A DNA stretch of 63,875 bases, counting the filler, from Blastocystis sp. subtype 4 (Eukaryota), in the NCBI RefSeq assembly GCF_000743755.1. It is 51 parts of 51 records of this genome, joined end to end, with 100 filler letters (N's around TTAATTAATTAA, not from the genome) between each part and the next. Parts side by side here need not be neighbours in the genome. Positions count along the whole stretch, not along the records: positions 3,764 to 4,877 come from NW_014568601.1; positions 4,978 to 6,090 come from NW_014568600.1; positions 6,191 to 7,303 come from NW_014568599.1; positions 7,404 to 8,514 come from NW_014568598.1; positions 8,615 to 9,716 come from NW_014568597.1; positions 9,817 to 11,596 come from NW_014568596.1; positions 11,697 to 12,801 come from NW_014568595.1; positions 12,902 to 14,005 come from NW_014568594.1; 43 more parts are not named here. The stretch is one strand, 5' to 3'. Of this stretch, positions 3,764-40,320 are shown one piece after another (position 1 is the first letter of the stretch; each line of letters starts with the position of its first letter). The translations under genes and the position numbers were made by a program. The notes below the pieces were generated by a model that was not told the DNA's origin, made no database searches, and worked only from the letters and a program-made list of their open reading frames with translations.

Positions 3764-4877
3764 TCAAATCATGAAGAGATCATTCAATTCAATGGATTCT
3801 TATCTCTATTGGCTGGAATGAGTTCAACCAACAATTGCTTCGTTTATCCTTATAATGTTACTACCTTTTCCAATAACTTCTCTAATCCTAGTGATGCTGT
3901 TAATAGGAGTACAGTTTGGGCAAGCAGTTGGAATCTTTGTAGTTCAACCATATTTGATTTCTCTGGTTCTTCTATTCCACTCATCAATTCTTATCGACTG
4001 TTCTCTTGGGATGTTTCATCAGCTCCCTCTTCATTCTCTATTGAAGGATCTGTATCAACTGATGACTCTTGGAACATGATTCTCTCTCCATTCAATGTTG
4101 GCTATACCGCATATGAATGGAAACAGTTTGATCTTGTTTCTCTTCCTCACAGATATCCTCTTCTTCGATTCACTCCTCATTCATCTTATGGTGGTAATAG
4201 ATTTGAACTGAATGAACTACAATTCCTTGTTTGTAATCGTCCTTCTGTGAGTAGTATTGAGTATCCTGAAACAGAATACTCATTCTACAAGGATTATCAG
4301 ATCTCTATTAGTCCGATTCAATATGGATACAGTGATTGTTCGATTCAGCCTTCACTTCCTGATGGAATGAGTATTGATTCCAACACTTGTATCATCTCTG
4401 GTGTATCTCATTCTCTCGGTTCACAACAGTATACTGTCACATCAACAATGATCACTCCTCCTATTCAATCTATTCTCAATCTCACATTCATTCAATGCTC
4501 TGGAAGTGTCTACAGAATTGACATGGTTTTTGACAGTCTTAGGAATGATCAATTCACTATTCGTGATACATCTGATGAAAGTATCCTCTATCAGATTCAA
4601 GCAGATCCTGGGGAATCAATTAAAATGAAGACTCATTATCTGTGTATCACTGTTGATCGATTTGATGTCACCTTCATATGCCGTGGAATGTATTCTGATT
4701 CGTATTATTCCATGTATTTGATACTTCCTGATGGTGAACAGGAAATGGTTCTGAAAGGACGATATGATGCTTATCAGTATAATGTTCATCATCATTATGT
4801 TCGTCGTCCTTCTATCAATCATTCAGAACAATGGTATTATAAGATGGGTGAAGTGCCTACCAATTGGTTTGGTGATG
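3764..4877 (+). CDS. Variable surface protein family, hypervariable central module (F5/8-discoidin-like + He_PIG-type Ig + beta-sandwich), partial, copy 1
   Basis: Open across the contig; Ig motif SIQPSLPDGMSIDSNTCIISG..YTVT; constant ends LAGMxSTNNCFVYPY and RRPSINHSEQWYYKMG shared by 9 contigs. Confidence 0.75.
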
Positions 4878-5036
4878 NNNNNNNNNNNNNNNNNNNNNNN
4901 NNNNNNNNNNNNNNNNNNNNNTTAATTAATTAANNNNNNNNNNNNNNNNNNNNNNNNNNNNNNNNNNNNNNNNNNNNTCCTATATGGGATATAACAAGAA
5001 ACAGACTACTAATAAAAAAACCATTACACAACTCTC

Positions 5037-6048
5037 TTAAGGACGATACTCTCCAGTCACAACAGCATGATCACGTTCATAAGGTTCCAATGTCAATTGT
5101 TCCAGTGGCTTGAACTTCTCCTCCCTCATCTTCTGTACCTCTGCAGCAAACACAGCTTCAGCAGAAGCAGTCGAATCAATACAGGAAGCCTTAATTGAAA
5201 TAACACAGTGACCTCCATTCTTCAGGAAATACTTGGCATTGATTCCCACAATACGAGCTTGATCAGGCTGAGCCACATCCGCAAAGATGGTATCAACCAT
5301 TCCTACCAACATACGATACTTCAAGGGATGACGAGCATCTTCAATGATTGGTACAATGTTTGGACGTGTCTTTGCCACATTTATCAGATCTCGACCCGGT
5401 CGGTGAGCAAACTCCACAGCATACACGAGACCAGTCTATCCTTCACTTCCACTCAATTCCATCTACAGGTCCAACAAGATCAGACACATGAGATACAGTA
5501 GTTCCCGAAGCAGCTCCCAGATACAACACTTTGCTTCCTGGACCCATGAAAATATCGCCAATACCTCCCTATTCCATCACTCTAATCTTTATCACCTACG
5601 ACAATTGCAGCGCCTAACTTGGAACGGAAAGGATTCCATTGTCGATATTCCTTCTTCTCTCCGATCGTTCCCTACATCTCATCGACCTATCCAAGGGCTA
5701 ACCGGGACATCTACAGAGATCTTCTTCTCTCCATACACAGTCTTTCCAGGAGCGAAGTTCAGTGTGCACAAGACATCTTCCTTAGAAGAGTGAGCGATGT
5801 AAACTCCACGGAATCTAACCGTTAACGCTCCAAACACAGAATCTACTTGTGAGACTCTATTGTCACTTTCGTTCCTCCTTTCATTCCTCCACGACCTCCA
5901 CGATTACCTCCTCTCGCTCCTCCTCTGCCACCACGTCCACCTCCTCTGCCACCACGATCTCCTCCTTTTCCTCCACGTCCACCTCCTCGGGCACCTCCAC
6001 GTCCACCTCGACTTCCTCCAAACCCGCCTCTTCCTCGAGATCCGTCAT
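5037..6048 (-). CDS. FBL: Fibrillarin (rRNA 2'-O-methyltransferase), first exon missing
   Basis: RGG/GAR N-terminus; [51 protein letters not shown]; short introns. Confidence 0.97.
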
Positions 6049-6190
6049 CTACAAGATGTGAGTCATTCTGAAAAGTGCAATGGCCATTTGNNNNNNNNNN
6101 NNNNNNNNNNNNNNNNNNNNNNNNNNNNNNNNNNTTAATTAATTAANNNNNNNNNNNNNNNNNNNNNNNNNNNNNNNNNNNNNNNNNNNN

Positions 6191-7303
6191 ATCATCACCA
6201 AACCAATTGTTAGGCACTTCACCCATCTTATAATACCATTGTTCTGAATGATTGATAGAAGGACGACGAACATAATGATGATGAACATTGCCTTGATAGG
6301 TATCATATCGACCCTTCAGAACCATCTCCTCTTCACCATCAGCTAACATAGAATACATGTAATAATATGAACCAGAAGACCAAGCAGAAGAGGTAGAAGC
6401 AAAGGTAACATCAAATCGATCAACAGTGATACACAGATAATGAGCTTCTAATCCAATTGATCCTTGAGAATGACCAGGTTGAATCTGATAGATAATACTC
6501 TCATTAGATGTATCACGAATAGTGAATTGATCATATCCATAACGAATAATCATTTGAGTTCTGTAGACACTTCCAGAACAGTGAATGAATGTGAGATTGA
6601 GAATAGATTGAATGGGAGGAGTGACCATTGTTGATGTAACAGTATACTGTTGTGAACCGAAAGAATGAGATACACCAGAGATGATACAAGTGTTGGGATC
6701 AATACTCATTCCATCAGGAAGTGAAGGCTGAATCGAACAATCACTGTATCCATATTGAATCGGACTAATAGAGATCTGTTCATAATCCTTGTAGAATGAG
6801 TATTCTGTTTCAGGATACTCAATACTACTCACAGGACGATTACAAACAAGGAATTGAAGTTCATTCAGTTCAATATTATCACCATAAGATGAATGAATAG
6901 TGAATCGAAGAAGAGGATATCTGTGAGGAAGAGAAACAAGATCAAACTGTTTCCATTCATACCATGTGTAACCAACATTGGATGGAGAGAGAATCATGTT
7001 CCAAGAGTCATCAGTTGATACAGATCCCTCAATAGAGAATGAAGGAGGATAAGGATAATAGTAAAGATTGCCGTAATTCCATATTCGATAAGAATTGATG
7101 AGTGGAATAGAAGAACCAGAGAAATCAAACGTCATAGAACCTGGAAACGAAGAAGTTGATGCATCTGAATAGTAGTCCCAATCAACAGTATAACTAGGAT
7201 CATCGAAGTCAGTAGAAGAGGCAGTAACAGGATAAGGATAAACGAAGCAATTGTTGGTTGAGTTCATTCCAGCCAATAGAGATAAGAATCCATTGAATTG
7301 AAT
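6191..7303 (-). CDS. Variable surface protein central module, copy 2, partial
   Basis: Open ORF homologous to 3764-4877 with different variable windows. Confidence 0.75.
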
Positions 7304-7403
7304 NNNNNNNNNNNNNNNNNNNNNNNNNNNNNNNNNNNNNNNNNNNNTTAATTAATTAANNNNNNNNNNNNNNNNNNNNNNNNNNNNNNNNNNNNNNNNN
7401 NNN

Positions 7404-8514
7404 CACTTGACACATCACTCTGTATCACCTTCCAATCTGTGTATTCAATCTGGAAAGGGAAATACGTTGAGAACACACTTGATACATAGATCGGTTTGTA
7501 ATCCTGTCTATTCATTGTCATCATATCCAACTCCATCTCTCCATAATCAACAGTCAAAGTGTAACCAGTTCCAACTGACCAACCATCTCCATATGAATTG
7601 GCTCCTTGGAATGTGTATATTCCATTATTCAAACAGAAATCAACATAGTAATAAGCATTATATACAGGGAATGAAGACACTGACTGAAGAACAGTTCCTG
7701 AGGTTCCTCTTCCTTCATAATGAGTTATATTGAGGAGAATAATCAGTTCTGATACGAACAGTCATCAATCCCTTGCCTCCAGTACAATTCACTACAGTGA
7801 ATAATAAGATGCCAGTCACATTTCCTCCAGTCATCTTAGTAGCAGTGATGGTGTAGGTTGTAACAACACTTACAACTGTAGGAGTACCTGAAATCCAACC
7901 AGAAAAAGGATCCAACACAATGCCAGCAGGAAGAGAAGGATTGATTCTGAAGTTCATGTAACGATCTCCATTCTGAGGAATCACTTCAGACATCTCAACA
8001 TATTTGAATACAGTGACTGGATCATAGGTGAAGTTAGGAATATCAGCCAACACATTATCAGCAAACAGATCCAGAGAAGAATCACCAGTACCAAAGTTCT
8101 CAAACTTGAATTGATTGTAAGGAGTATTGTTAGGGAAATAGATTCTTCTCTTCTGACCAGCAGTAGAATAAGTGAGACCAGTTACATTGGTCAGAAGTGT
8201 CCATTCATCTGTATCTGAGTTACGACCATACAGTCATCACTGTATGATGATGATACGGAATAATGGTTCTGAATCTGAACAGAACTGATCCATTCACGAC
8301 GATTGTTTGATAGAGTCAAAGTCAGAGAATTGGCAGCACAGGATGAAGAGTAGAGGATAGATCCATAAAACATATCGAAAGGGCTATCTGCAGTTCCAGC
8401 TATACCTGTCATTGAAGCAGTGAATTCCCAGATATGAGATTCAGATTGTTCTGATGACATCAAACGAACCATTGTATCGAAATAGGATGTGAGTTGAGTA
8501 TCATCAATAGCAAC
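7404..8514 (-). pseudogene. Variable surface protein, second discoidin-like + Ig module, with deletions and frameshifts
   Basis: SEQSESHIWEFTASM..REWISSVQIQN..LPAGIVLDPFSGWISGTP..; split over three ORFs; paralogs at 29679 and 37895. Confidence 0.65.
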
Positions 8515-8614
8515 NNNNNNNNNNNNNNNNNNNNNNNNNNNNNNNNNNNNNNNNNNNNTTAATTAATTAANNNNNNNNNNNNNNNNNNNNNNNNNNNNNN
8601 NNNNNNNNNNNNNN

Positions 8615-9716
8615 AATTGGTAGGCACTTCACCCATCTTATAATACCATTGTTCTGAATGATTGATAGAAGGACGACGAACATAATGATGATGAACATTG
8701 CCTTGATTCGCATAATATCCATCTTTCAGAACCATCTCCTCTTCACCATCAGGCAACAAAGAATACATTCGATAATAGGAGCTAGAGTAAAAATGAGATG
8801 AGAAGGTGAGATCAAATCGATCAACAGTGATACACAGATAATGAGTCTCTAATCCAACTGATTCTTGAGAATGACCTGGTTGAATCTGATAGAGAATACT
8901 CTCATTGGATGTGTCACGAATAGTGATTTGATCATTTCCAGAACTGTCAAGAATAATCTGATCAATTCTATAGACACTTCCAGAACAGTGAATGAATGTG
9001 AGATTGAGAATAGATTGAATGGGAGGAGTGATCATTGTTGATGTGACAGTATACTGTTGTGAACCAAGAGAATGAGATACACCAGAGATGATACAAGTGT
9101 TGGGATCAATACTCATTCCATCAGGAAGTGAAGGCTGAATCGAACAATCACTGTATCCATATTGAATCGGACTGATAGAGATCTGTTCATAATCCTTGTA
9201 GAATGAGTATTCTGTTTCAGGATACTCAATACTACTCACAGAAGGACGATTACAAACAAGGAATTGAAGTTTTGATAAGGCAGCAGGACCATTGTAAGAT
9301 GAATGAGCAGTGAATCGAAGAAGAGGATATCTGTGAGGAAGAGAAACAAGATCAAACTGGTTCCATTCCTCATATGATGTGTAACCAACATTGGATGGAG
9401 AGAGAATCATGTTCCAAAAGTCATCAGTTGATACAGATCCTTCAATAGAGAATGAAGAAGGCGGAGGATAATAGTAAAGATCACCAACATGCCATATTCG
9501 AAATGAATTGATGAGTGGAATAGAAGAACCAGAGAAATCAAACATCATTGAACTAGGAAGATTCCAGGAGGATGCAAAGAGATCACAGCTCCAATCAACA
9601 GTATAACTAGGACGAGTGAAGTCAGTAGAAGAGACAGTAACAGGATAAGGATAAACGAAGCAATTGTTGGTTGAAGTCATTCCAGCCAATAGAGATAAGA
9701 ATCCATTGAATTGAAT
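8615..9716 (-). CDS. Variable surface protein central module, copy 3, partial
   Basis: Open ORF homologous to 3764-4877. Confidence 0.75.
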
Positions 9717-10653: not shown

Positions 10654-11814
10654 TAGGAATAACTAACAAAGAATGAACAGCCAGTGGTATATGATAGAAC
10701 CGCGGTTATCTTTCTAATTTACCCATATTCTTCATAGACCCCCACTCCGAACTTGTACGGCCATCAGTTTTGATATCCATGCCAATTTTTGATGATTGTA
10801 TGAGACCTATATTCATGAGAATAATATTCACAGGAGAATGAGAAGATCAAACGATTGTGAAGTCAAACTGAAGGCAAGAATAAAAATGCAGACGACAATA
10901 AAAAACAAAAATAATGATAACTGGGATACGCCATATCTTTCTGCTAATGATGTTGGAAAATCATTGCAGTTGAAAAGGATAGTATAAACAAACAATAGAT
11001 TCCTCTCTGCTACTTCGATAAATGGGTAGAACAAGTGGAATTCCAGTAAGACATCTAACAATCACTTCTAACCATCAATATCAACGCATGAAGATAATAG
11101 TATACATATCTACCCATTAGAACAATCTGGATGAATTGAGATAGTAGAATTGATCTTCCTGCTAAAACACTTCCTAGTGCATTTGTATTTGAATTCAATT
11201 CTCTCCAGCAACTACACCAGAACAAAAGAGCAAGAAGTCGAGAAACAGCTAACGAGAAGACAAAGTGAGAAGTAAAAGACTCAATCTCACCCTTCTACAA
11301 CTCATCTATAATCAGAAATACAACTCGAGAACGAGAGAATAAAAGGAGTTGAGGATAGATTGCAAAAGCTTCTACATAGTGTGAGAAACTCCACAGAATA
11401 TCCAGAATAGGTTGTTGTGACAAACCAGGATGAACCAACTATACTAAATAGAGAAAGAAATAACTACAAGGGCATAACCAAAGAGAAGTACTAGAAAGAA
11501 AGAGATTGATTTGAAGGCAGTTGAAGGATTATGACCTGCAAAAGGATCCTTCAAATCAAATAAAACTTGTAGTAACTACGATATATGAATAATAAGNNNN
11601 NNNNNNNNNNNNNNNNNNNNNNNNNNNNNNNNNNNNNNNNTTAATTAATTAANNNNNNNNNNNNNNNNNNNNNNNNNNNNNNNNNNNNNNNNNNNNCCTT
11701 CTGATAAGAAGAATGATGATTTTGATGAATTGAATTAGTGTATATTGTTGTTTGATGTTTCTTTTGATCACTTGAATGACATCATGTAACTCTTCTCATA
11801 ATAACAAACACATA

Positions 11815-12658
11815 ACAAATGCTTTTCAATAGCATTCTTCATTTCACGGATATACTGTTTTATATCCGAAGCGCCAAAGATTGCTGAGCCGGATACTAAC
11901 ACGTTAGCTCCTTTGCTCGCACACAATTCTGCATTCTTTACAGACACACCACCATCAACCTCAATGTAAATTGACGAAGACAACGCCCTTATCTGAGCCA
12001 CCTTATCCAAGCACGATTCCATGAACTTCTGACCTCCAAATCCAGGCTCTACAGTCATTACCAACACCATATCCCTAGAATGAAAGTGTGATATCATACC
12101 TACAGAAGGGGAATAAACTCCTTTATGGCATCAACAGATGTCTTTGGCTTAATTGTCATAGCACACAACATTCCAGCTTCATGGACTTGACGGATAATAT
12201 CTCTTGGGTCTTCTAATGGTTATAAGATCTAACAAAACAAACTCGCTGCCTCCACATGGAAATTGAACATATTAGCTCCTGCTTCCTTTAAAGGAATAAT
12301 ATACTTCTCAGGGTTCTCAACCATCAAATGACAGTCCATGAAGTCGCTATAAATTACACAAACAATCAACTTCCACGATAAATGCTTGCGTAGTGACTTC
12401 ACTACAGGAGCTCCAATAGTAAGATTCGGAACAAAATGACCGTCCTACAGGTAATTCGGAGATAGGGGAAACACACCATAATATCAACGTGGAGCCAGTC
12501 AGCACCATTCTAATGATAATAAGGCCACTAAACTACAACAGCTATGAGCATTCGACAATCTCGTTCAAGATTGGAAAAATCAGCGCTAAGAATACTCGGA
12601 GAAATAATACTAAGGATAAAAATCCAAATGGAGAGTGATACGGCTTTAAAGAATCCAT
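11815..12658 (-). CDS. RPE: Ribulose-phosphate 3-epimerase; stop predicted to be completed by polyadenylation
   Basis: Spliced [69 protein letters not shown] at 11815 lies 4 nt before TGTTTGTT. Confidence 0.95.
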
Positions 12659-12901
12659 ATGAATTGAAAAAATGTGTAAGAAAAAGTGGAAAGATTCCAC
12701 TTGAAGAGTTACATGATGTCATTCAAGTGATCAAAAGAAACATCAAACAACAATATACACTAATTCAATTCATCAAAATCATCATTCTTCTTATCAGAAG
12801 GNNNNNNNNNNNNNNNNNNNNNNNNNNNNNNNNNNNNNNNNNNNNTTAATTAATTAANNNNNNNNNNNNNNNNNNNNNNNNNNNNNNNNNNNNNNNNNNN
12901 N

Positions 12902-14105: not shown

Positions 14106-15209
14106 TCAGAGGTGTTGAATATGAATTGTTGAATGAAGTGATTATTGGTGAGAATAGTCTGAGTTCATTGAGTCATTCGTGAGGAATTGAGTGTTGATTG
14201 ATGATTAGATACACAGTGAATAATCGTAATACCTTGTTGAGTATTCCTTGGGATGTAACTGCACTGACTGTAACTGCCAATTCATGTAATGATAATACCA
14301 TAAATGTGGTTGATTTGAGTTCATTCAAGTTTCTTCGAAGGGTTGTAATTGGTAAAGACTGTTTCAAGTATGTTCAGTTATTGTCGATAGTGGGACTCAA
14401 TTGGCTTGAATCAGTCAGTATTGGCACTTACAGTTTTTGGGTTGGTAGTAGTTCTTCTTTGAAGGACAGTGAGTTGAAGATTGTGAATTGTCCACAATTG
14501 AAGAGTTTGAATATCGGAGGTCGTTCATTTGATCGATACAATGGATTTGAATTGTCTCAGTTGCCTCAACTGAAATCTGTTGTAATAGATAGTGATTTTA
14601 GTTTTCGATATGTTCCTAATGTGGTATTCAGAGGTATGAATGATGGAAGAGATGGATTGTAGACTTGCCATCATTGGAGACTATTGATTTAGGATCTAAT
14701 GCCTTCCAGAATACAGAATATGTAGTATTTGAAAGTATGTGATAATAGGAATTGAACATATCAGATCTTCCTAAGTTGACAGTGTTACAGTTAGGGAATT
14801 ATTGTTTGGTTGGTTCGACTTCTACAAAGACAACTGACATTAGTCCCTATTACTATAAGAATACTCTTATCATGAGGAGTATGTATGTTAACAGTTCTAA
14901 TCATCAGATCTACCATCTTTGACAACATTAAGCATTAGATATGATAGTGTATTTGGGAATATGGGTTTTGTAACATTAGAAAGTATCACATTTGGAAGTA
15001 TCAAACAATAGATGTTCGATCACCTCTCACTATTGAAGGATCTAGTTCTTATCATTTCCAATACACTCACACTCTTGAAGTGAATAGTTGATGATTGGAT
15101 TGTTGATTGAGATGTAGATGCATCTAGTCTTGCTCAGTTGATATCATCCAGAAGTGTTTATGTGAAAGCAACAGGTGAAGTGATTGATCTCAGTTCAATT
15201 CCATTATCN
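14106..15209 (+). CDS. Variable LRR protein family A, partial
   Basis: LxxLxIGxxSF repeats; spliced through 29-31-nt introns; the ORF-track Met lies inside an intron; paralogs at 26110, 43652, 53335. Confidence 0.8.
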
Positions 15210-15308: not shown

Positions 15309-15900
15309 ATACACTCTCTTTCAAGTACTCTTTCCACTTCATTCTCCATTCTACTCCATTCATCTTCTTTGATATTGATTCAACATTATCTACTTTCATT
15401 CTCTTATTATCACTCATTAATCCTCGAATATGATCTATCTGTTCAACATTACCTGTTGCTAATTCACGGGAATCAATTCAATTCATCAATCTCTCATTTC
15501 AGCAATACCAGAAATACTCCATAATTTGATATCATTCAAACCGCGGGAATCATCTCTATTCTCATATCATATCAATACTAATTCTGTCATCATTCATACC
15601 ACAATTCGGATCTCCAATTACGCCATTCCACATTAGCCCATTTCATTCATTTCACTCCACTTCACTTACATTCATATCTCACTATTCTACTATATTCTAC
15701 TATCATCTCTTCATTCCTATTCAGTATTACTGAATACAATCACGGGAATATCAATCTCATCATTCATTACTCATATCATTCATTTCTTATTTCCATTTAT
15801 ATCTACACTCTCATATCATATCACATGTCAATCACTGTCAATCACATAAGTTGGTATCGTACATTAAGTAATGTCTGTTTCTTACAACATTATTTATTTG
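15309..15900 (+). promoter_or_regulatory. Conserved upstream region of the variable surface protein family
   Basis: Reverse-complement match to 1832-2385 and 25426-26009; C(A/G)CGGGAAT at 15465, 15542 and 15741. Confidence 0.5.
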
Positions 15901-15902
15901 AT

Positions 15903-16410
15903 ATGATTGTTGTTGATTGTAGTATCAATCATCTCATTCTATTCTTCACATTCTGTTTCATTCTTCATTCTACTCTCATTTCTAGTTATCCTTTCTTACT
16001 CTATTCAATGTTCATCTAATCAACATTATGTTAAGATCACTAAGATGACTACATATTATGCTTCTGAAGAGTCATTTGAGATTGTTTCTGGTTCTTCTGT
16101 TCTGTTCACTTCTCCTTCATTCGATGATGATCAACAATATGTGTATGAAGTCTGTTTGAATGCTTCTTCTAATCATATCTTCAATCTCGTTATGAGGGAT
16201 TCAAATGGTGATTATTGGTCTTCAGGTGCTTGGATTGAGATAGAAGGAATGAATGGAAACATTGTGTACAAGGGAATGATGACTGAAGGGAGGGTTCAAA
16301 CAGAACAGTTTTCTTTGTATTCTCCTATCAACAAGAATGATAGTTGGAAGTACACAAACAGTGTTTCAGACAATTGGAAGGATGTGAGTTATTCAGATGT
16401 TGATTGGAGT
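15903..16410 (+). CDS. Variable surface protein N-terminal module, partial
   Basis: Homolog of 1261-1800. Confidence 0.7.
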
Positions 16411-20142: not shown

Positions 20143-21230
20143 AGATTCAAATCATGAAGAGATCATTCAATTCAATGGATTCTTATCTCTATTGGCTGGA
20201 ATGACTTCAACCAACAATTGCTTCGTTTATCCTTATCCTATTACTGCCTCTTCTACTGACTTTGATGATCCTAGTCGTGCTATTGATTGGAATAATAATT
20301 GGTCTATGTATCCAAAAAGTGTTCCAGGTTCAATGATGTTTGATTTCTCTGGTTCTTCTATTCCACTCATCAATTCTTATCGAATGAAGTTGTCTGGTCA
20401 GGGTTTTAAAGTATTCACTCTAGAAGGAGCCATCTCCACTACTTCAACATGGGTAACATTGAATTCTAAAGCCATTAACACAGATAGTGGATGGAATCAG
20501 TGGAATGTAGTGAATCCATCACAGTATCCATTGTTGAAGTTCACTGTTCAATCATCTGGTGGACTATATGAAATGCAGTTTCTTATCTGTAATCGTCTTT
20601 CTCAAGCGATCGATTATCCTGAGACACAGTATTCGTTTTTTTGTTACTATGAACAAGTCAACATTGCTCCCATTTCAATTGATTTCTTTGGTTGTTCAAT
20701 CTCACCTGCTCTTCCTGATGGAATGAGTATTGATCCCAACACTTGTATTATTTCTGGAACATCGACTGTTGCATCTCCGATGACTTCCTATCATGTAACA
20801 GCTCAAAAAGGAATAACTCAGATTCAAACATCCATCAGTATTGCTTTCACCGAATGTACTGGTGCCTATTACAAGATTGTTCGAACTTACAAGACTAGTC
20901 CTCAGGACGAGTATTTCCGAATTCGTGATTTATCCAATGATGACATTCTTTTTGAGGTTCAATCTGGTCATTCACATCCTACCAATACTGATTGGACATA
21001 TTATCTCTGTATCAATGTTGATCGATTTGATGTTTCATTCTATTCCACTTCTACCTATTGGTCATCTGGCTCCTATTTCTATTTGTATCACATGTTGCCT
21101 GAAGGAGAAGAGGAGATGGTTGTGAAAGGACGATATGATGCAAATCAAGGTAATACTCATATCCATTATGTTCGTCGTCCTTCTATCAATCATTCAGAAC
21201 AGTGGTATTATAAGATGGGTGAAGTGCCTA
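20143..21230 (+). CDS. Variable surface protein central module, copy 7 (chimeric), partial
   Basis: 5' end matches the main subfamily; the remainder resembles 12902-14005. Confidence 0.75.
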
Positions 21231-24890: not shown

Positions 24891-25387
24891 GATTATCATT
24901 GAATGAATTGGTATTCCAAAGAGAATGATAACTATCACTGTATCTCCAAGTATCATTCTTATTGATAGGAGAATACAAACCAAATTGATTACTCTCTTCA
25001 CTTCCTCGAACCATAGTGTTCTTGAAGATAGTATTATCATTGATATCATTCATTGAGATCCATCCACTCTGCCATCCATCACCATATGAATCTTTCATGA
25101 TAAGAGTGTAGATATGATTAGAAGAAGCACTCAAACAGACTTCATACACATGGACTTGATTGTTTGAGAATGAAGGAGAAGAGAATAGAACAGAAGAACC
25201 AGAAACAATCTCAAATGACTCTTCAGAAGCCCAATTACCAGTCTTCTTAGTGATCTTAACATAATGTTGATTAGATGAACATTGAATAGAGTAAGAAAGG
25301 ATAACTATAAATGAGAGTAGAATGAAGAATGAAACAGAATGTGAAGAATAGAATGAGATGATTGATACTACAATCAACAACAATCAT
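24891..25387 (-). CDS. Variable surface protein N-terminal module, partial
   Basis: Homolog of 1261-1800. Confidence 0.7.
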
Positions 25388-26109
25388 ATGAAACAATTAG
25401 TGATGAAGAAATAAATGGATGAGAATTAATGAAATGATAACAAATTGATGTGATTGGGAGTGAGTGAGAAAGTGATTGACATGAATTGTGAGATATGAAT
25501 AGAATTGATATGGTATGAGAGTGTAGATATAAATGGAAATAAGAAATGAATGATATGAGTAATGAATGATGAGAATGACATTCCCGTGATTGTATTCAGT
25601 AATATTGAATAGGAATGAAGAGATGATAGTAGAATATAGTAGAATAGTGAGATATGAATGAAAGTGAATGTTGATTGAAATGAATGAAATGGGCTAATGT
25701 GGAATGGCGTATTTGGGGATCCGAATTGTGGTACGAATGATGACAGAATTAGTAATGATATGAGAATAGAGATGATTCCCACGGTTTGAATGATATCAAA
25801 TTATGGAGTATTTGTGGTATTGCTGAAATGAGTGATTGATGAATTGAATTGATTCCCGTGAATGAGTAACAAGGTAATGTTGAACAGAAAGATCATATTG
25901 ATTTCTTGATTGATGATAAGAGAATGAAAGTAGATAATGTTGAATCAATATCAAAGAAGATGAATGGAGTAGAATGGAGAATGAAGTGGAAAGAGTACTT
26001 GAAAGAGAGNNNNNNNNNNNNNNNNNNNNNNNNNNNNNNNNNNNNNNNNNNNNTTAATTAATTAANNNNNNNNNNNNNNNNNNNNNNNNNNNNNNNNNNN
26101 NNNNNNNNN

Positions 26110-27193
26110 ACTTGAGAATAATCCTCAAACCTCAGATCCTCAACTGATAATGGAATTGAACTGAGATCAATCACTTCACCTGTTGCTTTCACATAAACAC
26201 TTTTGGATAATATCAACTGAGCAAGACTAGATGCATCTACATATCAATCAACAATACAATCATCAACTATTCACTTCAACAGTATGAGTGTATTGGAAAT
26301 GATAAGAACCATAGTCTTCAATAGTGAGAGGTGATCTAACATCTATTGTTTGATAGTTCCAAATGTGATACTTTCTAACCTTACAAAACCCATATTCTCA
26401 AACACATCATCACTAATGCTTAATGTTCCCAAAGATGGTAGATCTGATGATTAGAACTGTTAACATACATACTCCTCATGATAAGAGTATTCTTATAGTA
26501 ATAGGGAATTACATCAATTGTCTTTGTAGAAGTCGAACCAACCAAGCTCTCTCGCTGTAATCGTAACACTGTCAACTTAGGAAGATCTGATATGTTCAAT
26601 TCCTATTACCACATACTTTCAAATACTACATATTCTGCATTCCTGAAGACATAAGATTCTAAATTGATGCTTCCCAATGATGGCAAGTCTACAATCCATC
26701 TCTTTCATCATTCATACCTCTGAATACTGCATTACGAGCATATTGAAAACCATGTCCATAACCATAACTACTAGCTATTGTTACAGATATCAGTTGAGAT
26801 AACTGAGACAATTCAAATCCATTGTATCGACCAAATGAACGACCTCCAATACTCAAACTCTTCAATTGTGGACAATTCACAATCTTGAACTCACTGCCCT
26901 CCCATAATGAACCGTCACTCCCAAAACTGTATTCACCAATCCTGACTGATTCAAGCCAATTGAGTCCCACTATCGAGAATAACTGAACATACTGGAAACA
27001 GCTGTTACCAATCACAACACTTCGAAGAAACTTGAATGAACTCAAATCAACCACATATATGTTATTATCATTACATGAACTGGCAGTTACAGTTAGTGCA
27101 GTTACATACCAAGGAATACTCAACAAGGTATTGCGATTATTCACTGTGTATCTAGTCATCAATCAACACTCAATTCCTCACGAATGACTCAAT
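26110..27193 (-). CDS. Variable LRR protein family A, partial
   Basis: Homolog of 14106-15209 with the same intron positions. Confidence 0.8.
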
Positions 27194-27293: not shown

Positions 27294-28375
27294 GATTCAA
27301 CAGAAGTAGATATCTCCTTCATTTGATCGATTCTTGATATCCAGAATGCTGGTGGATGTAAGGACAATGAGCGTTCAGAAGGAGTAACGTGACTGTTGAA
27401 AATGATGTAGTATTCAAGAGCATCAGCATCTCAATCATTATCAATTTAATATATCATACTTGAACTGTTCAAAACATTCACTTCACTGAATGAGTTTTCA
27501 TTTTTCATTATACCAAAAGAATAAGTATTTCTCAATTGCATTCCTTCTGAAGTGAGTGATGGAATATCTAATTCAAATCCAATCATCAATCATCACTNNN
27601 NNNNATCACTTTCCCTATATAACTGAAGTTGCAACTTCCTTTGAAAAGAGTTAGAGAAGGAAGATCTGATCATCAGTATCATTATTATTCATACTCTTCA
27701 TTATCAATACATTCGATTCAATAGTATTGGTTTCACCTTGAAGAGCTCCCTCACTTAGAGTGATGGATTGAAGTTGATTCAGATCTCATTCATCATTCAT
27801 TCAATCATTCATACTCTCAAATACTATCCTATGACACTTCATGAATGCATGACGATCCAATTGAATAGATATGAGAGAAGGAAGATTCTTCAATTCAAAT
27901 GATTCATACCAATAGAATGAACCACGTCCAATATGGATATCTTTCAATTGATCGTCTTCTCATTGACAATTTTCAACCATNNNNNNNNNNNNNNNNNNNN
28001 NGAAGGAAGATTCTTCAATTCAAATGATTCATACCATCTGAATGACCAATATCCAATATGGATTTGTTTCAATTGATCACAATTCATTATTACACATGAG
28101 CTTCCTCTACTATTCTCATCATCGAGAGTAAAGCTCCCCTCTTCAATGATCAAACTCTCCAATTCATTCAATCCATCAATCACAAATCGATCATCTACTT
28201 CCGTAAAACAACCATCTCCAATCTCAATTCGTTTTAATGATATCAATAAATTGTTCAATATCAATGATGATATATCAGGATTGAAATGATCAGCAATAAT
28301 CAGAGATTCAACACAACTAGTAACAATCAATTCACAATCATCAATCCATTTCATTCTCATATCATCATTAACATC
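27294..28375 (-). CDS. Variable LRR protein family B, partial
   Basis: LISLKRIEIG..CF..IDGLNELESLII..IMNCDQL..ELKNLP repeats; internal N gaps; paralogs at 31083 and 47039. Confidence 0.7.
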
Positions 28376-29678: not shown

Positions 29679-30756
29679 GATCGGTTTTGTTCCACTACTC
29701 ATTTCCATGATATCCAATTCCATCTCTCCAACATCAACAGTTAGAGTATATCCAGATCCTGCACTCCATCCATCTCCCCATGAATCAGCTCCTTCAAATG
29801 TGTATATTCCATTATCCAAACAGAAATCAACATAGTAATAAGCACTTGCTACAGGAAATGGAGATACTGACTGAAGAACAGTTCCTGAAGTTCCTCTTCC
29901 TTCATACAGTTTCCATGAATTCTCACTCTTATAATAATCAGCATAGAAACGAACAGTCATCAATCCTCGAGTACCAGAACATATAGTCACTTCAAATGAG
30001 ATAGTAACAGTCACATCTCCTCCACTAATCTTAGTAGCAGTGATGGTATAGATTTGAGCACTACTCTCATCAGTGGCAGTACCTGAAATCCAACCAGTAT
30101 AAGGATCCAACACAATACCATCAGGAAGAGAAGGATTAATTCTGAAGTTCATGTAACCATCATTATTCTGAGGAATCACTTCAGCCATTTCAATATACCT
30201 GTACACAGTGACTGAAGAATCATAAGTGAAGTTAGGAATATCAGCCATCACATTATCAGCAAACAGATCCAGAGATTGAACATACCAAGTACAAGAAGAA
30301 GAATCACCAGTACCAAAGTTCTCAAACTTGAATTGATTATAAGGAGTATTGTTAGAGAAGTAGATTCTTCTCTTCTGACCAGAGTGTCCATTCATCTGTT
30401 CCCAAGTTACGACCATACAAATTGAATTGAGCAGCCTTATTATTGCTGTATGTTGTTGTATAGTAGTTCTGAATCTGAACAGAACTGATCCATTCACGAC
30501 GATTGTTTGATAGAGTCAAAGTCAGAGCATTCTCAGTACAGGAATAGTAATAGATATTGGTTCCATAATACATATCAAATGGATAAGTGGCAGTTCCATA
30601 CATACCAGATAATGAAGCAGTGAATTCCCAGATATGAGATTCAGATTGTTCTGATGCCATCAAACGAACAACTGCATCGAAATAGGATGTGGTGTAACTG
30701 TCAGCAATAGCAACAATAGCAATAGCAATCGTGTTACTTCCAGATTGAAGGAATGT
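29679..30756 (-). pseudogene. Variable surface protein second module, frameshifted by a deletion near 30383
   Basis: Homolog of 7404-8514; LPDGIVLDPYTGWISGT Ig motif. Confidence 0.65.
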
Positions 30757-31082
30757 NNNNNNNNNNNNNNNNNNNNNNNNNNNNNNNNNNNNNNNNNNNN
30801 TTAATTAATTAANNNNNNNNNNNNNNNNNNNNNNNNNNNNNNNNNNNNNNNNNNNNCTACTCGAGATGTTGCTAGTAATCTGAAGAATGAAGCGATTGAT
30901 CAAGTGAATGGTACAGGAAGTGTATTTGGAGGTGGATCTGTTGTTTCAAGTGTAGTTTGTCATCCTGTTAACTGCTCATCATTTAGTGTTAGAAAGTATG
31001 TTTTACTTTGTTCAGACCATTTGACTGATTACTTAACCATCCTTGCATCGATTATTAACAAACACTTTAGTATTCCCCTCAT

Positions 31083-31930
31083 TTACAGATAATCACTCTT
31101 CTGTCGAATGAATCGATCAAGTGAATTGGCATCTCAATCAATAGCAATCAATCAATCATACTTGAACTATGCAATTCTTGAACATTATTGAATGGTATGA
31201 TATATTCCTTTCTTAACTGAATTCCTTCTTCAGTGAGTAGCATAATGTCTATGTCAAATGCAACCATCATTCATCACCATTACCTATATACCTGAAATTC
31301 GAACCCTCTCCTTTGAATACAGATAGAGAAGGGAGATCTCATCAATCAATCATCATCATTCATACTCTTCATTTTCAATTCATTCGATTCAGTAGTAGCA
31401 GAATCACAATCAAGAGCCTCTAATCCAAGGGTGATAGATCCAAGTCGAGTCAGATCTCATTCATCATTCATTCAATCATTCATACTCTCAAATACTATCC
31501 TATGACACAACTGGAATACAAAGCCGTCCAATTGAATGAATATGAGAGAAGGAAGATTCTTCAATTCAAGTGATTCATACTCATAGAATGAGCCCATTCC
31601 AGTGTGGATTTCTCTCAGTTTATCACAATTCATTATCAAGCATTTGCTTCCTTCTCGATTATTCTCATCGAAACAGAAGCTATCATGTCTAATGATGATA
31701 GTCTCCAATTCATTTAATCCATCAATCTCAAATCGACTCACTTTCTTGAAACAATCATTTCCAATCTCAATTCGTTTCAATGATATCAATGAATTGTTCA
31801 ATATCAATGATGATATATCAGGATTGAAACCATAACCAATAATCAGAGATTCAACACAACTAGTAACAATCAATTCACAATCATCAATCCATTTCATTCT
31901 CATATCATCATTAACATCAATAATAACATC
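31083..31930 (-). CDS. Variable LRR protein family B, 3' part
   Basis: LRR repeats, phase-1 introns, ends ..LDRFIRQKSDYL*; TGTTTGTT downstream. Confidence 0.75.
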
Positions 31931-33203: not shown

Positions 33204-33263
33204 ATGACTTAGCTTCCTAGATCAGACGGGTTAGGGCGCTTTCCACTAGATATGACCGTTCTT
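33204..33263 (-). rRNA. 5S rRNA, 5' half (cut by contig end)
   Basis: Identical to 46660-46719; about 40 nt of upstream flank is also conserved. Confidence 0.8.
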
Positions 33264-33599
33264 GTTTTTATTTCTTTCACTAACCCTTTTCAACAACACA
33301 TTTTTATCCTCACATCATCAATGATAATAGCATTCATAAGAAACAATCATTCTTTTATATGAATGTTATTTCCTGATTTAGTCTCGTTATCAGTCTTCAA
33401 TCCATGGAGTATGAAACATAGTCGATTGCTTCATTCCGAATGTGAAAAAGAGTAGTAATAAGAGAATCCTTCTAGAGACAATCCCCTATATGCTATGGGG
33501 ATGAGGTGATGTGTATCCTTAGGAGTACAATAATGTTGAAAAATAATGAAGATAATTGATTAAAGAGTGGACTTTCATAAAGGATAGAATATTGATTGC

Positions 33600-34274
33600 A
33601 GGCATACATCTCCATGCCTGCAAATATGCCATATGATTGATGTAACAACCAAGTCATCTGAGCCAGACTCAATGCCCTCCCATCGTTATCTGTGAACAGT
33701 CAGAGTCACAGGAACAGGAATTTGCGACTTTGTTAGAGAAATCCAGTCTAATTCACAACACTCAAGATTGTCACTAACTTCTGTTTATCATCAGGATGGG
33801 AAAGAAGAAACAGTAGGATAACCTAGAATGTTGAGTGAGTTCCATTTGCTTCCAACAAGATTCTCAACATTCCATTCGATGAATGATCCAACTCTGTTAG
33901 GCAGCTTACCTGTAGTGTAAGGATCAAGATCCATGATTCCGGCAAGAGTACCTGAAGTGGGATTTGTAGATTCAAGTGAAGAATAGGAATCAACAATAGT
34001 AGAACAGTCTTCAACTCCAAATACTCCAGTAGCATCAAACACAACACCATCAGAAGAAGAACCACTCAAACCACGATGAATCTCAAAACTGAATACATTA
34101 ATGCCTTCTTGAATTCCAGATGTTGACAGAATCACATGGAACTTCGAGAAGGAAGTAGAATCATGATCAGTCATCGATAGACTCAAAGAATCGAAATCAT
34201 CTTCAAGATTGAATCGAGCAACCAGATTTCCATTCAGATAAGCAGCCACTCCTCCAGAATACTTCACTCGAACA
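33600..34274 (-). pseudogene. Variable surface protein third module, degenerate
   Basis: KYSGGVAAYLNG..VFDATGVFGVEDCSTIVDSYSSL homologous to 55542-56558; stops and frameshifts in the 3' part. Confidence 0.6.
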
Positions 34275-34374
34275 NNNNNNNNNNNNNNNNNNNNNNNNNN
34301 NNNNNNNNNNNNNNNNNNTTAATTAATTAANNNNNNNNNNNNNNNNNNNNNNNNNNNNNNNNNNNNNNNNNNNN

Positions 34375-35316: not shown

Positions 35317-35595
35317 TTTTCTTACTAAGTAAAAAGGAAACATTTATGTTTCTATGGAGAAATAATCAGATGGAGGGTGAAAGGGATGAATGGGTTGATT
35401 TTCCAAATTAGCAACTTGATTTTGCAAAATGGATTGATTTTCCAAAATAGCAAAATGGAAAATCATCAACAATTCACCCGTCACCTTTCCTAAATNNNNN
35501 NNNNNNNNNNNNNNNNNNNNNNNNNNNNNNNNNNNNNNNTTAATTAATTAANNNNNNNNNNNNNNNNNNNNNNNNNNNNNNNNNNNNNNNNNNNN

Positions 35596-36650
35596 TTTCA
35601 TCAAACAGATATGCACAAACATCTTGTTTAATATGCATCAAATAATCAATGAATGGTATCAAATCTCTTTCATCTTCATGTTCAGCATGAAATACCTTAT
35701 ATTCTGTTTTCACATTATCAATCTTTGATACAGTAACACATGATAATAGAATAGGTTTATGTTGTTTGTCCTTATCAATACAACATTCAAAATCTGCATA
35801 TACAACTACAGGAACAGGCATTGTATATCTTTGATTTTGCCATTTCAAATATGTATTACTATCACCCAATATGTATCGTTCTTCTTCAGGTACTTCATCT
35901 CCATGCATTTTGATTTCATGAACAATTGTGTATTTCTTAGCAGCAGAGAAATCACACCAACGACATTTACACAATCTAGCTGTATTACGTTGAACATTAT
36001 CCTTACTACGATACAAATGTTGTTTNAACTTACTCATATCCTTAATCAACACAAAATGTTTCACCTTCAAATGTTCATCATTCAAGATACAAAGATTCAC
36101 TTCTTGTTTAATATCAATTCTTTGATTCTTCTTAACAGGATATACACATTCTACAACCATCTTTTCAAGATTCTTCTCATCCATACTCTTCATATCAAAT
36201 CCATCAAACATTCTCATTTCATAACAGTTGATATAAACATTCAGTAGATTCTCCAATTCCTCGAATTTCTCTACACATTCTATGAATGGTTGATTATCAG
36301 CAATATTCATAGCATTCTCAATTTCAAGTATTGTATGTCCAAATACAGGATTCTTGATTGGTTTGTTCCAATACTTACTATAACCTGATACTCTTGTAGT
36401 ATTACAATTCTTGATAATCGATGAACCATTATAAGCAAGTATCAAACATCGTTGTAAACAACGATTATCATTGATACAAGGATTAACAACACATTCACCA
36501 AGAATAGCAGGAGTTTTAATACCAGCTCCAACATATACCTTTAAAGGCAACAGATTCATTTGTACACCTAGATTTCCAACATATCGCCATCCAGAACCCA
36601 TCATTTCAATTCCTTCAATTGCTTCTTCATAGAACTTAAGGAAACATTTG
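35596..36650 (-). CDS. Protein-primed family B DNA polymerase, N-terminal/exonuclease region (Polinton/Maverick/adintovirus type), partial
   Basis: Ordered motifs GSGW..PL..P....N...DNRC, HFVLIKDMS, CxxC..H Zn finger, PVVVYADFEC (Exo I); open across the contig, intronless, AT-rich. Confidence 0.8.
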
Positions 36651-37894
36651 NNNNNNNNNNNNNNNNNNNNNNNNNNNNNNNNNNNNNNNNNNNNTTAATT
36701 AATTAANNNNNNNNNNNNNNNNNNNNNNNNNNNNNNNNNNNNNNNNNNNNCTCACTCAAAAAGTCGTCAAGAATCAACTGGACATCAGGAAAGGCTTCAG
36801 ATCAATCTGACTTTCATTCCTTACCTTCACTACAATTCTCTGTTCCTGCGATTTTCTACGAATAACCGCCATTCTCAATACTCACTTTAAGACCTGAGAT
36901 TATGGGTTTCCAACTGCCCTTGAGACAGTCACCCTGAATAATCACATCATACAAAGCATCCAGAGCAGTGGCCTGAGACAAGCGGTTAGCAAGGAGACTG
37001 TTTACAACCTTCAACAGGTCAGGCACCACAGAAACAAAGGAGGAGGTCTCAGCAGGATGATCATTGATCTGTTGGAGGACACTGGAAATGAAAAGGAAGA
37101 TGGGTTGAGTGAGTCCAGGTAAGGAGGCATGATGTCTGAGAGCTGATGGGACCTCCGCAAGTAATTGAGTGATTGAAGCGATATGAGATTCGATATCAGC
37201 AACACGAGGAGTAATGATACATAAGAGATGAAGTAAACCAGAAGCAGATTGACAAGGAGATCCTTTCGATTTGAGTGAAATTGAGTTCTCAAGACCATAT
37301 TCCTCACAAATGACTACTCATTATNNNNNNNNNNNNTTTCCATTCTTCAATCAATCGACTTCGACCATTCATAATCTCACTATGAATTCCCCGACGAGCT
37401 GTTTCAATCAAAACTTCAACCACTTCATTCACTAATCATTACTCCTTTCTCTCTTCCTCACATCCTTTCACAGAATATCCTTCACAAATCTTCATCAATG
37501 AAGCAGTCTGTTCATCGATAATCTCATACTCTGCACACACAATAGGAGAAGAAGGAGACATCTATTCATGATTCCTTCTTCTCTCTCTCACATAATGGTT
37601 ATCATTATCTTTACCAGGTATGTATTCTTCAATCACTTCTAGTGTGGCTTCTACTAGTCTCCATACACCTGTCATTCCTTCTCCATTCCCTGCACACACT
37701 ACAGATAGAGACTCAATTGCTGCTAGATTCTTATAACTGAAAACAGTCTCAGCAGAACGTTTCTTGGCTTCCTGTGCAGGAATCTCAGGAAGAGNNNNNN
37801 NNNNNNNNNNNNNNNNNNNNNNNNNNNNNNNNNNNNNNTTAATTAATTAANNNNNNNNNNNNNNNNNNNNNNNNNNNNNNNNNNNNNNNNNNNN

Positions 37895-39182
37895 CATTCC
37901 TTCAATCTGGAAGTAACACGATTGCTATTGCTATTGTTGCTATTGCTGACAGTTACACCACATCCTATTTCGATGCAGTTGTTCGTTTGATGTGATCAGA
38001 ACAATCTGAATCTCATATCTGGGAATACACTTCAAGTATGTCTGGAATCAGTGGTTATTCCATATATCCTTTTGATATGTATTATGATACTCGTGTTTCT
38101 TCATCCAGTTGTGAATCTAAGAATCTTATAGTTACATTTTCTAATGATCGTGGTGAATGGATCAGTTCTGTAGAGATTCAAAGCTCTTATTATTCTGGCA
38201 GCTATCAATATGTGGTTACTGAATTCGTTCTGTATGGTCGTAACTCAGATACAGATGAATGGACACTTCTAACAAATGTAACTGGTCTCACTTATTCAAC
38301 AATGGTTCACAGAAGACGAATCTACTTCCCTAAGAATACTCCTTACAATCAATTCAAGTTTGAGAAGTTCAGTTCAGGGAATCGTTCGTCATGTTCATGG
38401 GTGATTCAATCTGTGGATCTGTTTGCTGATAATGTGTTGGTTGATATTCCTAACTTCACTTATGATTCTTCAATGACTATATTCAAGGATATGAAGATGA
38501 CCGAAGTGGCTCATGGGTGATTTGTTTGCTGATAATGTGTTGGTTGATATCCCTAACTTCACTTATGATTCTTCAATGACTATATTCAAGGATATGAAGA
38601 TGACCGAAGTGGCTCCTCAGAACACAGAGGAGTATCTCGATTTCCGAATCTCTCCTGTACTTCCTTCTGGTATTGTGTTAGATGCTAACACTGGTTGGAT
38701 TTCAGGTACTCCTACAGTTGTGAGTACTACTCAAACCTACACAATCACTGGTACTAAGATGAGTGGAGGAGATGTGAGTGCCACCTTAACACNAATACTC
38801 CTTACAATCAATTGAAGTTTGAGAAGTTCAGTTCAGGGAATCGTTCGTCATGTTCATGGGTGATTCAATCTGTGGATTTGTTTGCTGATAATGTGTTGGT
38901 TGATATTCCTAACTTCACTTATGATTCTTCAATCAGTGTATACAAGGATATGAAGATGACCGAAGTGGCTCCTCAGAACACAGAGGAGTATCTCGATTTC
39001 CGAATCTCTCCTGTACTTCCTGCTGGTATTGTGTTAGATGCTAACACTGGTTGGATTTCAGGTACTCCTACAGTTGTGAGTGGTACTCAAACCTACACAA
39101 TCACTGGTACTAAGATGAGTGGAGGAGATGTGAGTGCCACCTTAACACTTACTGTAGTGACTTGCTCTGGAGATAAAGGAAT
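37895..39182 (+). pseudogene. Variable surface protein second module with a premature stop and internal duplications
   Basis: TGA at 37993 where a paralog has TCA; DLFADNVLVDIPNFTYD occurs three times. Confidence 0.65.
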
Positions 39183-39282
39183 NNNNNNNNNNNNNNNNNN
39201 NNNNNNNNNNNNNNNNNNNNNNNNNNTTAATTAATTAANNNNNNNNNNNNNNNNNNNNNNNNNNNNNNNNNNNNNNNNNNNN

Positions 39283-40320
39283 TCACAGATTCAAATCATG
39301 AAGAGATCATTCAATTCAATGGATTCTTATCTCTATTGGCTGGAATGAACTCAACCAACAATTGCTTCGTTTATCCTAATAATATTGATGGTCCTGGTGA
39401 TGCTATTAATTGGGACATATCTGGAGCTGGCATTTGGAGTCAACCTATATCATTCATATTTAATTTCTCTGGTTCTTCTATTCCACTCATCAATTCTTAT
39501 CGATTCTACTATTGGGATGCTACATTATCTCCTTCTTCATTCTCTATTGAAGGATCTGTATCAACTGATGACTCTTGGAACATGATTCTCTCTCCATTCA
39601 ATGTTGCTTACACAGGAGATGGATGGAAACAGTTTGATCTTGTTTCTCTTCCTCACAGATATCCTCTTCTTCGATTCACTGCTCATTCATCTTATAGTGG
39701 TTATGTTCTCTTATCAGAACTTCAGTTCCTTGTTTGTAATCGTCCTGTGAGTAGTATTGAGTATCCTGAAACAGAATACTCATTCTACAAGGGTTATCAT
39801 ACCTCTGTTAGTCCGATTCAATATGGATACAGTGATTGTTCGATTCAGCCTTCACTTCCTGATGGAATGAGTATTGATCCCACCACTTGTATCATCTCTG
39901 GTGTATACTGTCACATCAACAATGGTCACTCCTCCTATTCAATCTATTCTCAATCTCACATTCATTCAATGTTCTGGAACTGTCTATAGGATTGATCAGA
40001 TTATTCGTTATGAATATGATCAAATCACTATTCGTGATTCATCCAATGAGAGTATCCTCTATCAGATTCAAGCTGACCATTCTCAGGGATCAAATGGATT
40101 TGAGAGTCATTATCTCTGTATCACTGTCGATCGATTTGATGTCACATTCTCATCTTATTCTTACTCTAGCTCTTATTATCGAATGCATTCTTTGTTGCCT
40201 GATGGTGAAGAGGAGATGGTTGTGAAAGGACGATATGATGCTGATCAGAATAATGTTCATCATCATTATGTTCGTCGTCCTTCTATCAATCATTCAGAAC
40301 AATGGTATTATAAGATGGGT
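39283..40320 (+). pseudogene. Variable surface protein central module, copy 9, with a 26-nt frameshifting deletion
   Basis: Homolog of 3764-4877; deletion between GTAT repeats at about 39903. Confidence 0.7.

Follow-up and report, generated by a model that had tools for sequence, protein, structure and literature searches.

The stretch of DNA analysed here (the window, 63,875 nt including filler) was taken from assembly GCF_000743755.1 of Blastocystis sp. subtype 4 (ST4), which is among the common human subtypes. It contains nine copies of one module from a predicted surface-protein family, in which short variable windows interrupt nearly constant sequence. The window consists of 51 contigs of about 1-2 kb each, separated by artificial N44-TTAATTAATTAA-N44 spacers, and the family was present on 22 of these, comprising the nine named copies and 13 contigs with other gene parts. 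All named full-coverage homologues of the window proteins were from ST4, strains WR1 (JH06_) or BT1 (WA171_), and the constant flanks of the module matched their WR1/BT1 counterparts almost letter for letter. Homologues were annotated as hypothetical or cadherin-domain proteins, and other family members had ST3 orthologues by cluster. BT1 is an axenic ST4 culture sequenced with Nanopore reads, assembled into 34 scaffolds and reported to be diploid, according to the accessible sections of PMC10690189 (version 2). The comparison set comprised 27 BT1 proteins, 11 of them of the variable class defined below; this list is a lower bound and is skewed to near-identical cluster members. The BT1 gene models P0010, P0020, P0033, P0068 and P0069 serve as comparison sequences.

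In blastn searches, the nine contigs matched one another and no other contig of the window. Each module runs from the end of a constant domain through domain A (~130 aa, CBM32-like in its predicted fold), an Ig-like He_PIG spacer and domain C (~105 aa) to the start of another constant domain. As the preliminary description had it, all nine begin and end in the same constant sequences, and in these flanks none of 819 same-amino-acid codon pairs differed. The seven contigs to which it had ascribed near-identical frameworks (3764, 6191, 8615, 16511, 17759, 23705 and 39283, named by first position) were the same seven that share one framework, hereafter the variable class, and every window it had quoted after INSYR was found. 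Its count of nine copies of one module stood for these seven; copy 12902 is of the stable class, and copy 20143 is half stable-class behind INSYR. Reading frames were open in seven of the nine copies. The copies, with the eight variable windows of the first, are as follows.

3764..4877, plus strand: variable-class module, open frame; CBM32-like domain ~3833-4237, He_PIG spacer ~4235-4495, second beta-sandwich ~4496-4804, constant flanks
3851..3946, plus strand: A-L0/L1 variable window of copy 3764 (in the CBM32-like fold, the loop that follows the helix)
4004..4030, plus strand: A-L2 variable window (after INSYR) of copy 3764
4085..4114, plus strand: A-L3 variable window of copy 3764
4178..4213, plus strand: A-L4 variable window of copy 3764
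4520..4549, plus strand: C-L1 variable window of copy 3764
4601..4627, plus strand: C-L2 variable window of copy 3764
4670..4699, plus strand: C-L3 variable window of copy 3764
4763..4783, plus strand: C-L4 variable window of copy 3764
6191..7303, minus strand: variable-class module, open frame; query for the second structure model
8615..9716, minus strand: variable-class module, open frame; its A-L1 is that of four BT1 genes with other A-L2
12902..14005, minus strand: stable-class module within the same constant flanks, open frame; 74% to ST4 P0001
16511..17658, minus strand: variable-class module, open frame; 157 nt at 100% in common with L005
17759..18850, minus strand: variable-class module, open frame; A-L2 and A-L3 are those of P0044, A-L1 differs
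20143..21230, plus strand: chimeric module, variable-class up to INSYR, then stable-class; A-L1 recurs in L002, C-L1 in L001
23705..24790, minus strand: variable-class copy with a 50-nt frameshifting Ig-spacer deletion at ~24212; second sandwich is that of BT1 P0020/P0069
39283..40320, plus strand: variable-class copy with a 26-nt frameshifting Ig-spacer deletion at ~39903, between 4-nt direct repeats

The two frameshifting deletions were rejected as introns, since ST4 introns are 30 nt long, which neither deletion (50 and 26 nt) matches, and the stretch lost from 39283 is not the GT..AG at that site. The 23705 deletion was not seen in the contigs of the four runs examined (contigs report presence only), and contigs spanning the site in X1, X6 and X8 retained the 50 nt. 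Pieces of its domain C were present in X1 (298 nt with 5 differences) and X6 (151 nt with none). This deletion may therefore be strain-private or an assembly error.

A complete He_PIG-family protein of this kind has 1,400-2,200 aa. In full-length relatives of 1,400-1,700 aa, a leader precedes three He_PIG domains, and the C-terminal part comprises a hydrophobic helix and a basic tail. He_PIG (PF05345) scored above the Pfam cut-off of 24 in all five copies scanned (27.1-34.8 bits). Two structure models were built, the first from 7 rows, with a predicted local distance difference test score (pLDDT) of 64.7, and the second (AlphaFold2, AF2) from 43 rows, with a mean pLDDT of 79.9; they agreed on the fold of domain A. 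Using VIA, the domain A model was matched to the GH92 module 7nsn (Z 16.9), the NanJ CBM32 2v72 (Z 16.3, root-mean-square deviation (rmsd) 2.1, 128 aligned) and fucolectin 3cqo (Z 13.3). The modelled domain thus matches the CBM32/F5-8 type C/discoidin fold, a galactose-binding-domain-like jelly-roll, and not an Ig-like one. The variation thus falls on a CBM32/discoidin-like domain, and the Ig-like one is what stays invariant. Domain A gave no Pfam F5_F8_type_C match at E<=1 and no PDB sequence match at E<=10 (one weak match in the whole search). As the fold also covers non-lectins (DOC/APC10, muskelin), sugar binding by the modelled domain is putative. Domain C is an eight-strand beta domain for which Pfam returned only a sub-threshold DUF7045 match; its Atlas matches were hypothetical clusters (0.80).

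Across the seven variable copies, all eight loops of one parity varied (mean pairwise identity 0.21-0.64), and all six loops of the alternate parity were conserved (0.79-0.96). Only 1 of 3003 relabellings is as extreme (exact p=1/3003). By topology, variation is confined to one end of each beta-sandwich, as the preliminary description had envisaged, and this end lies opposite the exit of the chain to the Ig spacer. The spacer, previously called nearly invariant, had an identity of 0.95. In the F-type lectin fold, according to the part of PMC5712786 consulted, the termini leave at the bottom and the ligand loops, labelled after complementarity-determining regions ('CDR1-5'), lie on top. In 12 stable-class paralogs used as a control, the top loops averaged 0.52 and the bottom loops 0.60. 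The A-domain bottom loops of these paralogs ranged from 0.26 to 0.46 and their Ig spacer was at 0.53; bottom loops can therefore accept change, but in the variable class they stay fixed. The top loops of domain C, comparatively conserved in the stable class (0.61-0.68), are freed in the variable class.

Tyr/Ser/Trp/Gly/Asp made up 0.50 of the variable loops against 0.33 elsewhere, consistent with the reported richness of the windows in these residues. The same loops of stable paralogs had 0.47, so this composition is inherited and was rejected as evidence of convergence on a CDR-like make-up. Changes in loop length were in frame (30 gap-polymorphic codon columns), and nucleotide diversity per 30 nt rose in sharp peaks to 0.59 against 0.00-0.04 between them. 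None of 143 new 50%-cluster representatives bore the marks of the variable class; 43 of these sequences cover the module, at 24-38% identity. Such clustering hides recent paralogs, and other subtypes may therefore still have a variable class of their own.

Substitution rates were estimated by the Nei-Gojobori method (NG86) on the seven copies with bootstrap confidence intervals (CI). In the loops, synonymous divergence (dS) was 0.47, nonsynonymous divergence (dN) 0.46 and dN/dS 0.98 (95% CI 0.74-1.31). The dS was 0.073 in the A framework, 0.036 in the Ig spacer, 0.020 in the flanks and 0.29 in the C framework (ratio 0.41), and the frameworks had dN/dS of 0.7-0.8 with wide CI. Synonymous sites of the loops were 6-13 times more diverged than those of the CBM32-like framework and Ig spacer. 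Where two copies encode one and the same amino acid, the codons differed in 185/897 comparisons in the loops and 194/1091 in the C framework, compared with 43/1136 in the A framework, 38/1535 in the Ig spacer and none in the flanks. Because both measures are higher in the loops and domain C, these appear to be old and the scaffold young, which in such sequences is the mark of conversion homogenising constant blocks while divergent loop tracts persist. Variation was thus not evenly spread, in line with the preliminary proposal; the low dS and high dN of fast positive selection, on the other hand, were not seen.

Variable columns showed no bias to A or to C/G (A 0.71, C 0.71, G 0.82, T 0.59) and were not transition-rich. 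The target of a diversity-generating retroelement (DGR), adenine-specific and of constant length, was rejected on the lack of A bias and the varying loop lengths, and deaminase-like mutagenesis was rejected on the base spectrum. A test of the pairwise homoplasy index (PHI) type on 135 informative sites gave p=0.0002 at window sizes 5 and 10 and p=0.003 at size 20. The nearest neighbour of a copy switched between loops. A loop-type table was compiled from 20 sequences of the window, BT1, European Nucleotide Archive (ENA) proteins and metagenome loci. It held 10 types of A-L1 and 13 of A-L2 (18 sequences each); of 17 pairs sharing a type at one of these loops, only 4 had both types in common. 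Mosaics were found in independent assemblies (L001, L002, P0037, P0044 and P0062). L002 combines the A-L1 of 20143 with the A-L2 of BT1 P0033 and the A-L4 of P0006, L001 crosses into a stable-class second half within the Ig spacer, and 23705 has the same domain C as BT1 P0020/P0069 but another domain A. The A-L1/A-L2 mosaics are poorly explained by mis-assembly because these loops are about 60 nt apart, inside one read. Given the high loop dS, the absence of base bias, the PHI result and the recurrence of identical loops in new combinations in other strains, the loop variants are likely to be old and to have been shuffled by gene conversion, not hypermutated.

BT1 carries at least 11 variable-class gene models, on 11 contigs that differ in length, among the 27 proteins compared. 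In this axenic long-read assembly they bear out the claim that the copies are paralogs in one genome whose constant flanks collapsed in assembly. On the large contigs, 7 of 10 BT1 variable-class models lie <=36 genes from a contig boundary, assuming that locus tags run in order along the contigs (boundary tags 426|428, 4727|4763, 5151|5182, 2301|2335 and 4317|4333), which suggests either chromosome ends or assembly breaking at repeats. Subtelomeric location and ectopic recombination are features of the var and VSG families. The downstream constant domain was 89-100% identical (median 95%) among 20 BT1 paralogs, compared with a median of 52% among seven from other subtypes, and on this account ST4 homogenises the family. 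Of seven stable-class N-terminal regions in WR1, three had a BT1 gene at 100% identity; the remaining four were without a counterpart in the partial BT1 set. None of the seven variable copies of the window exceeded 86% to any of the 27 BT1 proteins. Two ST3 members were 99% identical between metagenome proteins and strain DL. Contigs of RNA library X15 held pieces of several variants, in a bulk sample that does not thereby prove transcription. Neither chance nor strain mixture alone explains the feature.

The other parts of the family in the window were as follows.

1261..2385, minus strand: 5' end of a variable-class gene, with the DNA upstream, a hydrophobic leader and the N-terminal sandwich, whose loops vary
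15309..16410, plus strand: 5' end of a variable-class gene, second variant
24891..26009, minus strand: 5' end of a variable-class gene, third variant, in which both types form a mosaic
45917..46938, minus strand: 5' end of a variable-class gene, fourth variant
7404..8514, minus strand: family gene, second module
29679..30756, minus strand: family gene, second module; 90% to BT1 P0010 across 235 aa
37895..39182, plus strand: family gene, second module, pieces repeated internally
33204..34274, minus strand: family gene, third module
55542..56558, minus strand: P0026-type family gene, third module and Ig repeats
56659..57689, minus strand: P0026-type family gene, Ig-repeat tail
44785..45816, plus strand: variant CBM32-like domain, Ig pieces and the start of a P0068/P0069-type tail

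In the four 5'-end contigs, the N-terminal sandwich showed loop-restricted, mosaic variation as in the module. At L006:1-4251, a variable-class gene is truncated just past the first loop and lies next to the 3' part of a second family gene, in tail-to-tail orientation. BT1 P0069 is a variable-class model in which a papain-family protease domain (Pfam E 1e-5) takes the place of a terminal transmembrane (TM) helix, through either a fusion or a merged model. At L001:1-1700, a MORN-repeat and leucine-rich-repeat (LRR)-like gene lies head-to-head with, and upstream of, a variable-class gene; the multi-copy block therefore exceeds the gene. A gene of this MORN/LRR-like kind occurs three times in the window (27294-28375, 30857-31930 and 47039-48069), the copies differing in their repeats. 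A separate LRR-like module is present four times (14106-15208, 26110-27193, 43652-44684 and 53335-54338), with a fixed framework, variable positions and loop lengths at the repeats, and a weak LRR_EndoS match (E 0.0012); it is possibly a second repertoire-like family. Positions 40421-42406 and 42507-43551 carry near-identical C-terminal parts of another He_PIG/Cys-repeat membrane protein, as alleles or recent duplicates.

Three contigs contain repeats of their own: 1-1160 repeats part of itself, 11697-12801 starts and ends in an inverted repeat, and 37895-39182 repeats internal pieces, likely as assembly artefacts or local duplications. The pairs 59490-60906/61007-62603, 52227-53234/62704-63875 and 18951-20042/28476-29578 share repeated DNA that has no relation to the family. 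On the minus strand of 35596-36650, an open frame of ~350 aa contains the motif VVVYADFEC, which we take to recall regions of protein-primed/Polinton-like DNA polymerases.

Taken together, the module is best read, with a probability of about 65%, as part of a conversion-shuffled ST4 surface-protein repertoire, in which outward loops on a CBM32-like domain and the neighbouring sandwich form combinatorial predicted binding surfaces. The repertoire is probably located at chromosome ends. Ectopic homologous recombination between copies, many of them near BT1 contig ends, would use the constant blocks as homology, homogenising the scaffold and swapping short loop tracts, and broken copies could serve as donors. 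The loop variants would be old, and selection for novelty, of a balancing or frequency-dependent kind, would keep them apart; this is proposed as the reason for the greater synonymous divergence of the loops. The selecting agent may be secretory antibody of the host, a variety of glycan or bacterial ligands, or both; immune evasion by a lectin-like adhesin is slightly preferred to ligand diversification. The idea of a diversified ligand-binding or antigenic repertoire, put forward in the preliminary description, fits the loop-confined variation, but its antibody-like generator does not fit a dN/dS of 0.98 with high dS.

Several observations weigh against this reading. The window contigs are a fragmented short-read assembly of material that may not be clonal. 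The 11 BT1 variable-class models have just four loop sets, and four of the models were chosen as >=90% like others. Loop parity was taken from strands of the second model, as strand order and not coordinates, and VIA gave no fold name for domain C, its two lists being filled by domain A. Identical runs of 48-121 nt between copies lie in the Ig spacer, where an assembler could mis-join both domains, and joins across the spacer are less safe than the A-L1/A-L2 reassortment. Positive selection in the loops is not demonstrated by NG86, as the CI of dN/dS spans 1; it is plausible from the gap-free close loop pairs, with a ratio of 1.27 (34 non-independent pairs, untested) against 0.99 and 0.75 in distant pairs. 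A C-terminal hydrophobic/TM helix was present in 1 of 11 BT1 variable-class models compared with 13 of the 15 other BT1 models, and surface display is therefore predicted for one only. This model, P0068, reaches the helix via a Pro/Thr-rich stretch, an LRR-like region and Ig repeats. The models without a TM helix may be pseudogenes, donors or annotation errors.

The 10 BT1 models that lack the helix also bear on classical antigenic variation, in which most copies would be silent or truncated donors that convert one or a few full-length expression sites in the course of an infection, as for TprK, VlsE and Msp2. Discrete variable windows bounded by constant blocks, the frameshifts in two of the nine window copies and in L002, and the truncation of L006 are what it would leave. 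The copies, however, are long genes with a leader and upstream DNA, not short cassettes, and truncation may reflect gene-model or polishing errors in repeats. Each loop set has several near-identical BT1 copies, which resembles duplication rather than an archive, and several variants were present in contigs of the one bulk RNA library; we consider this explanation unlikely. Neutral subtelomeric churn, in which conversion homogenises a redundant subfamily while selection is relaxed and change accumulates where it is tolerated, would account for a dN/dS of about 1 in the loops and 0.7-0.8 (wide CI) in the frameworks, for frameshifted and truncated copies, and for further repeated families in the window that vary too. 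It would not free exactly eight top loops while fixing bottom loops that vary in stable paralogs, nor is it favoured by the in-frame changes at 30 codon columns and the seven open frames of nine, and it appears quite improbable.

Two further explanations are both very unlikely. Alleles of a few polymorphic genes, mis-joined through identical blocks in an assembly artefact or strain mixture, could arise in a fragmented short-read assembly with the identical runs described above, and the 23705 deletion was missing from all four runs examined. Such joins do not explain why axenic long-read BT1 shows this loop pattern in 11 copies on as many contigs, or why A-L1 and A-L2 reassort within the length of a read. 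Targeted hypermutation of the loops, whether DGR-like or deaminase-like, would produce the sharp diversity peaks and the near equality of dN and dS; the variable columns, however, have neither A bias nor an excess of transitions, loop lengths vary, and entire loops recur letter for letter in other strains. Beyond the conversion-shuffled repertoire favoured here, the copies might form a true system of in-host antigenic variation or adaptive adhesins, which would be the first known from a stramenopile, with a chromosome-end archive of mostly non-functional donors feeding CDR-like loops into expressed lectin-fold receptors. We regard this as doubtful; if it were true, antibody-escaping or ligand-tuned variants would arise within one host during colonisation.

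Blastocystis colonises about a billion people (PMC5608401, in part), and its persistence, and why isolates of one subtype differ in adhesion, are given as open questions in the portion of PMC4031124 consulted. The named genes and exact windows are offered for the study of antibody escape, adhesion specificity and strain typing. The CBM32/discoidin fold would be a natural variable-loop scaffold, for which stable paralogs in the same genome are built-in controls. The terms antigenic, Ig-like and cadherin were not used for the family in the accessible portions of PMC5608401 and PMC10690189 (version 2). No account of loop-restricted mosaic diversity in Blastocystis was found in the literature searched. 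Version 1 of PMC10690189, in which 'cadherin-like' and 'immunoglobulin' each occur once and 'cell surface' five times, may mention an expansion. The family is known as adhesin candidates, with its loop-shuffling organisation likely undescribed in print; the loci may have been missed until now because short-read assemblies shred them.

In ST7, 26 genes with IPR008009 (He_PIG, PF05345) are listed as 'adhesive candidates' (PMC3129679, in part). The ST4 family shares with them the genus and a Pfam domain above cut-off, but the sections consulted of that account describe no CBM32-like domains, variable subfamily, loop-restricted diversity or mosaicism (PMC3129679). The bacterial CBM32/F5/8 type C modules (2v72, 4lks, 1eut) are alike in fold (Z 15.6-16.3, rmsd 2.1-2.6) and differ in sequence (12-17% identity), with ligand residues not conserved. 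Ig V-type antigen receptors are unlike the ST4 proteins, in which the variable domain is CBM32-like and there is no C/G or transition bias. In their fold class, top-loop variation at the ligand pocket and recombination, the ST4 modules resemble the F-type lectins, namely the eel 'CDR1-5' proteins and oyster bindin, as far as PMC5712786 was available. The eel lectins keep a His/Arg/Arg fucose triad, whereas no conserved triad was seen in the ST4 modules, and bindin recombines in an intron under positive selection, whereas the ST4 module has no intron (PMC5712786, in part). In ST4, moreover, three sandwich types of a large membrane-protein family vary. The genes of the Entamoeba Gal/GalNAc lectin complex are likewise a surface lectin family of a gut protist, with gene conversion and unusually high dS, but have another fold and form a small family, and the part of PMC3125142 consulted states no loop-by-loop combinatorial pattern. 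TprK of Treponema pallidum also has discrete, exposed variable regions in a fixed scaffold and mosaic reuse of segments through segmental gene conversion; according to the portion of PMC10063172 at hand, its 53 short silent cassettes serve a single expression site, and switching within the host is proven. The ST4 copies, unlike those cassettes, are gene-sized, and for them an expression site and switching would be hypothetical. VlsE, Msp2, VSG and ves1 are mosaics of the same broad kind as TprK.

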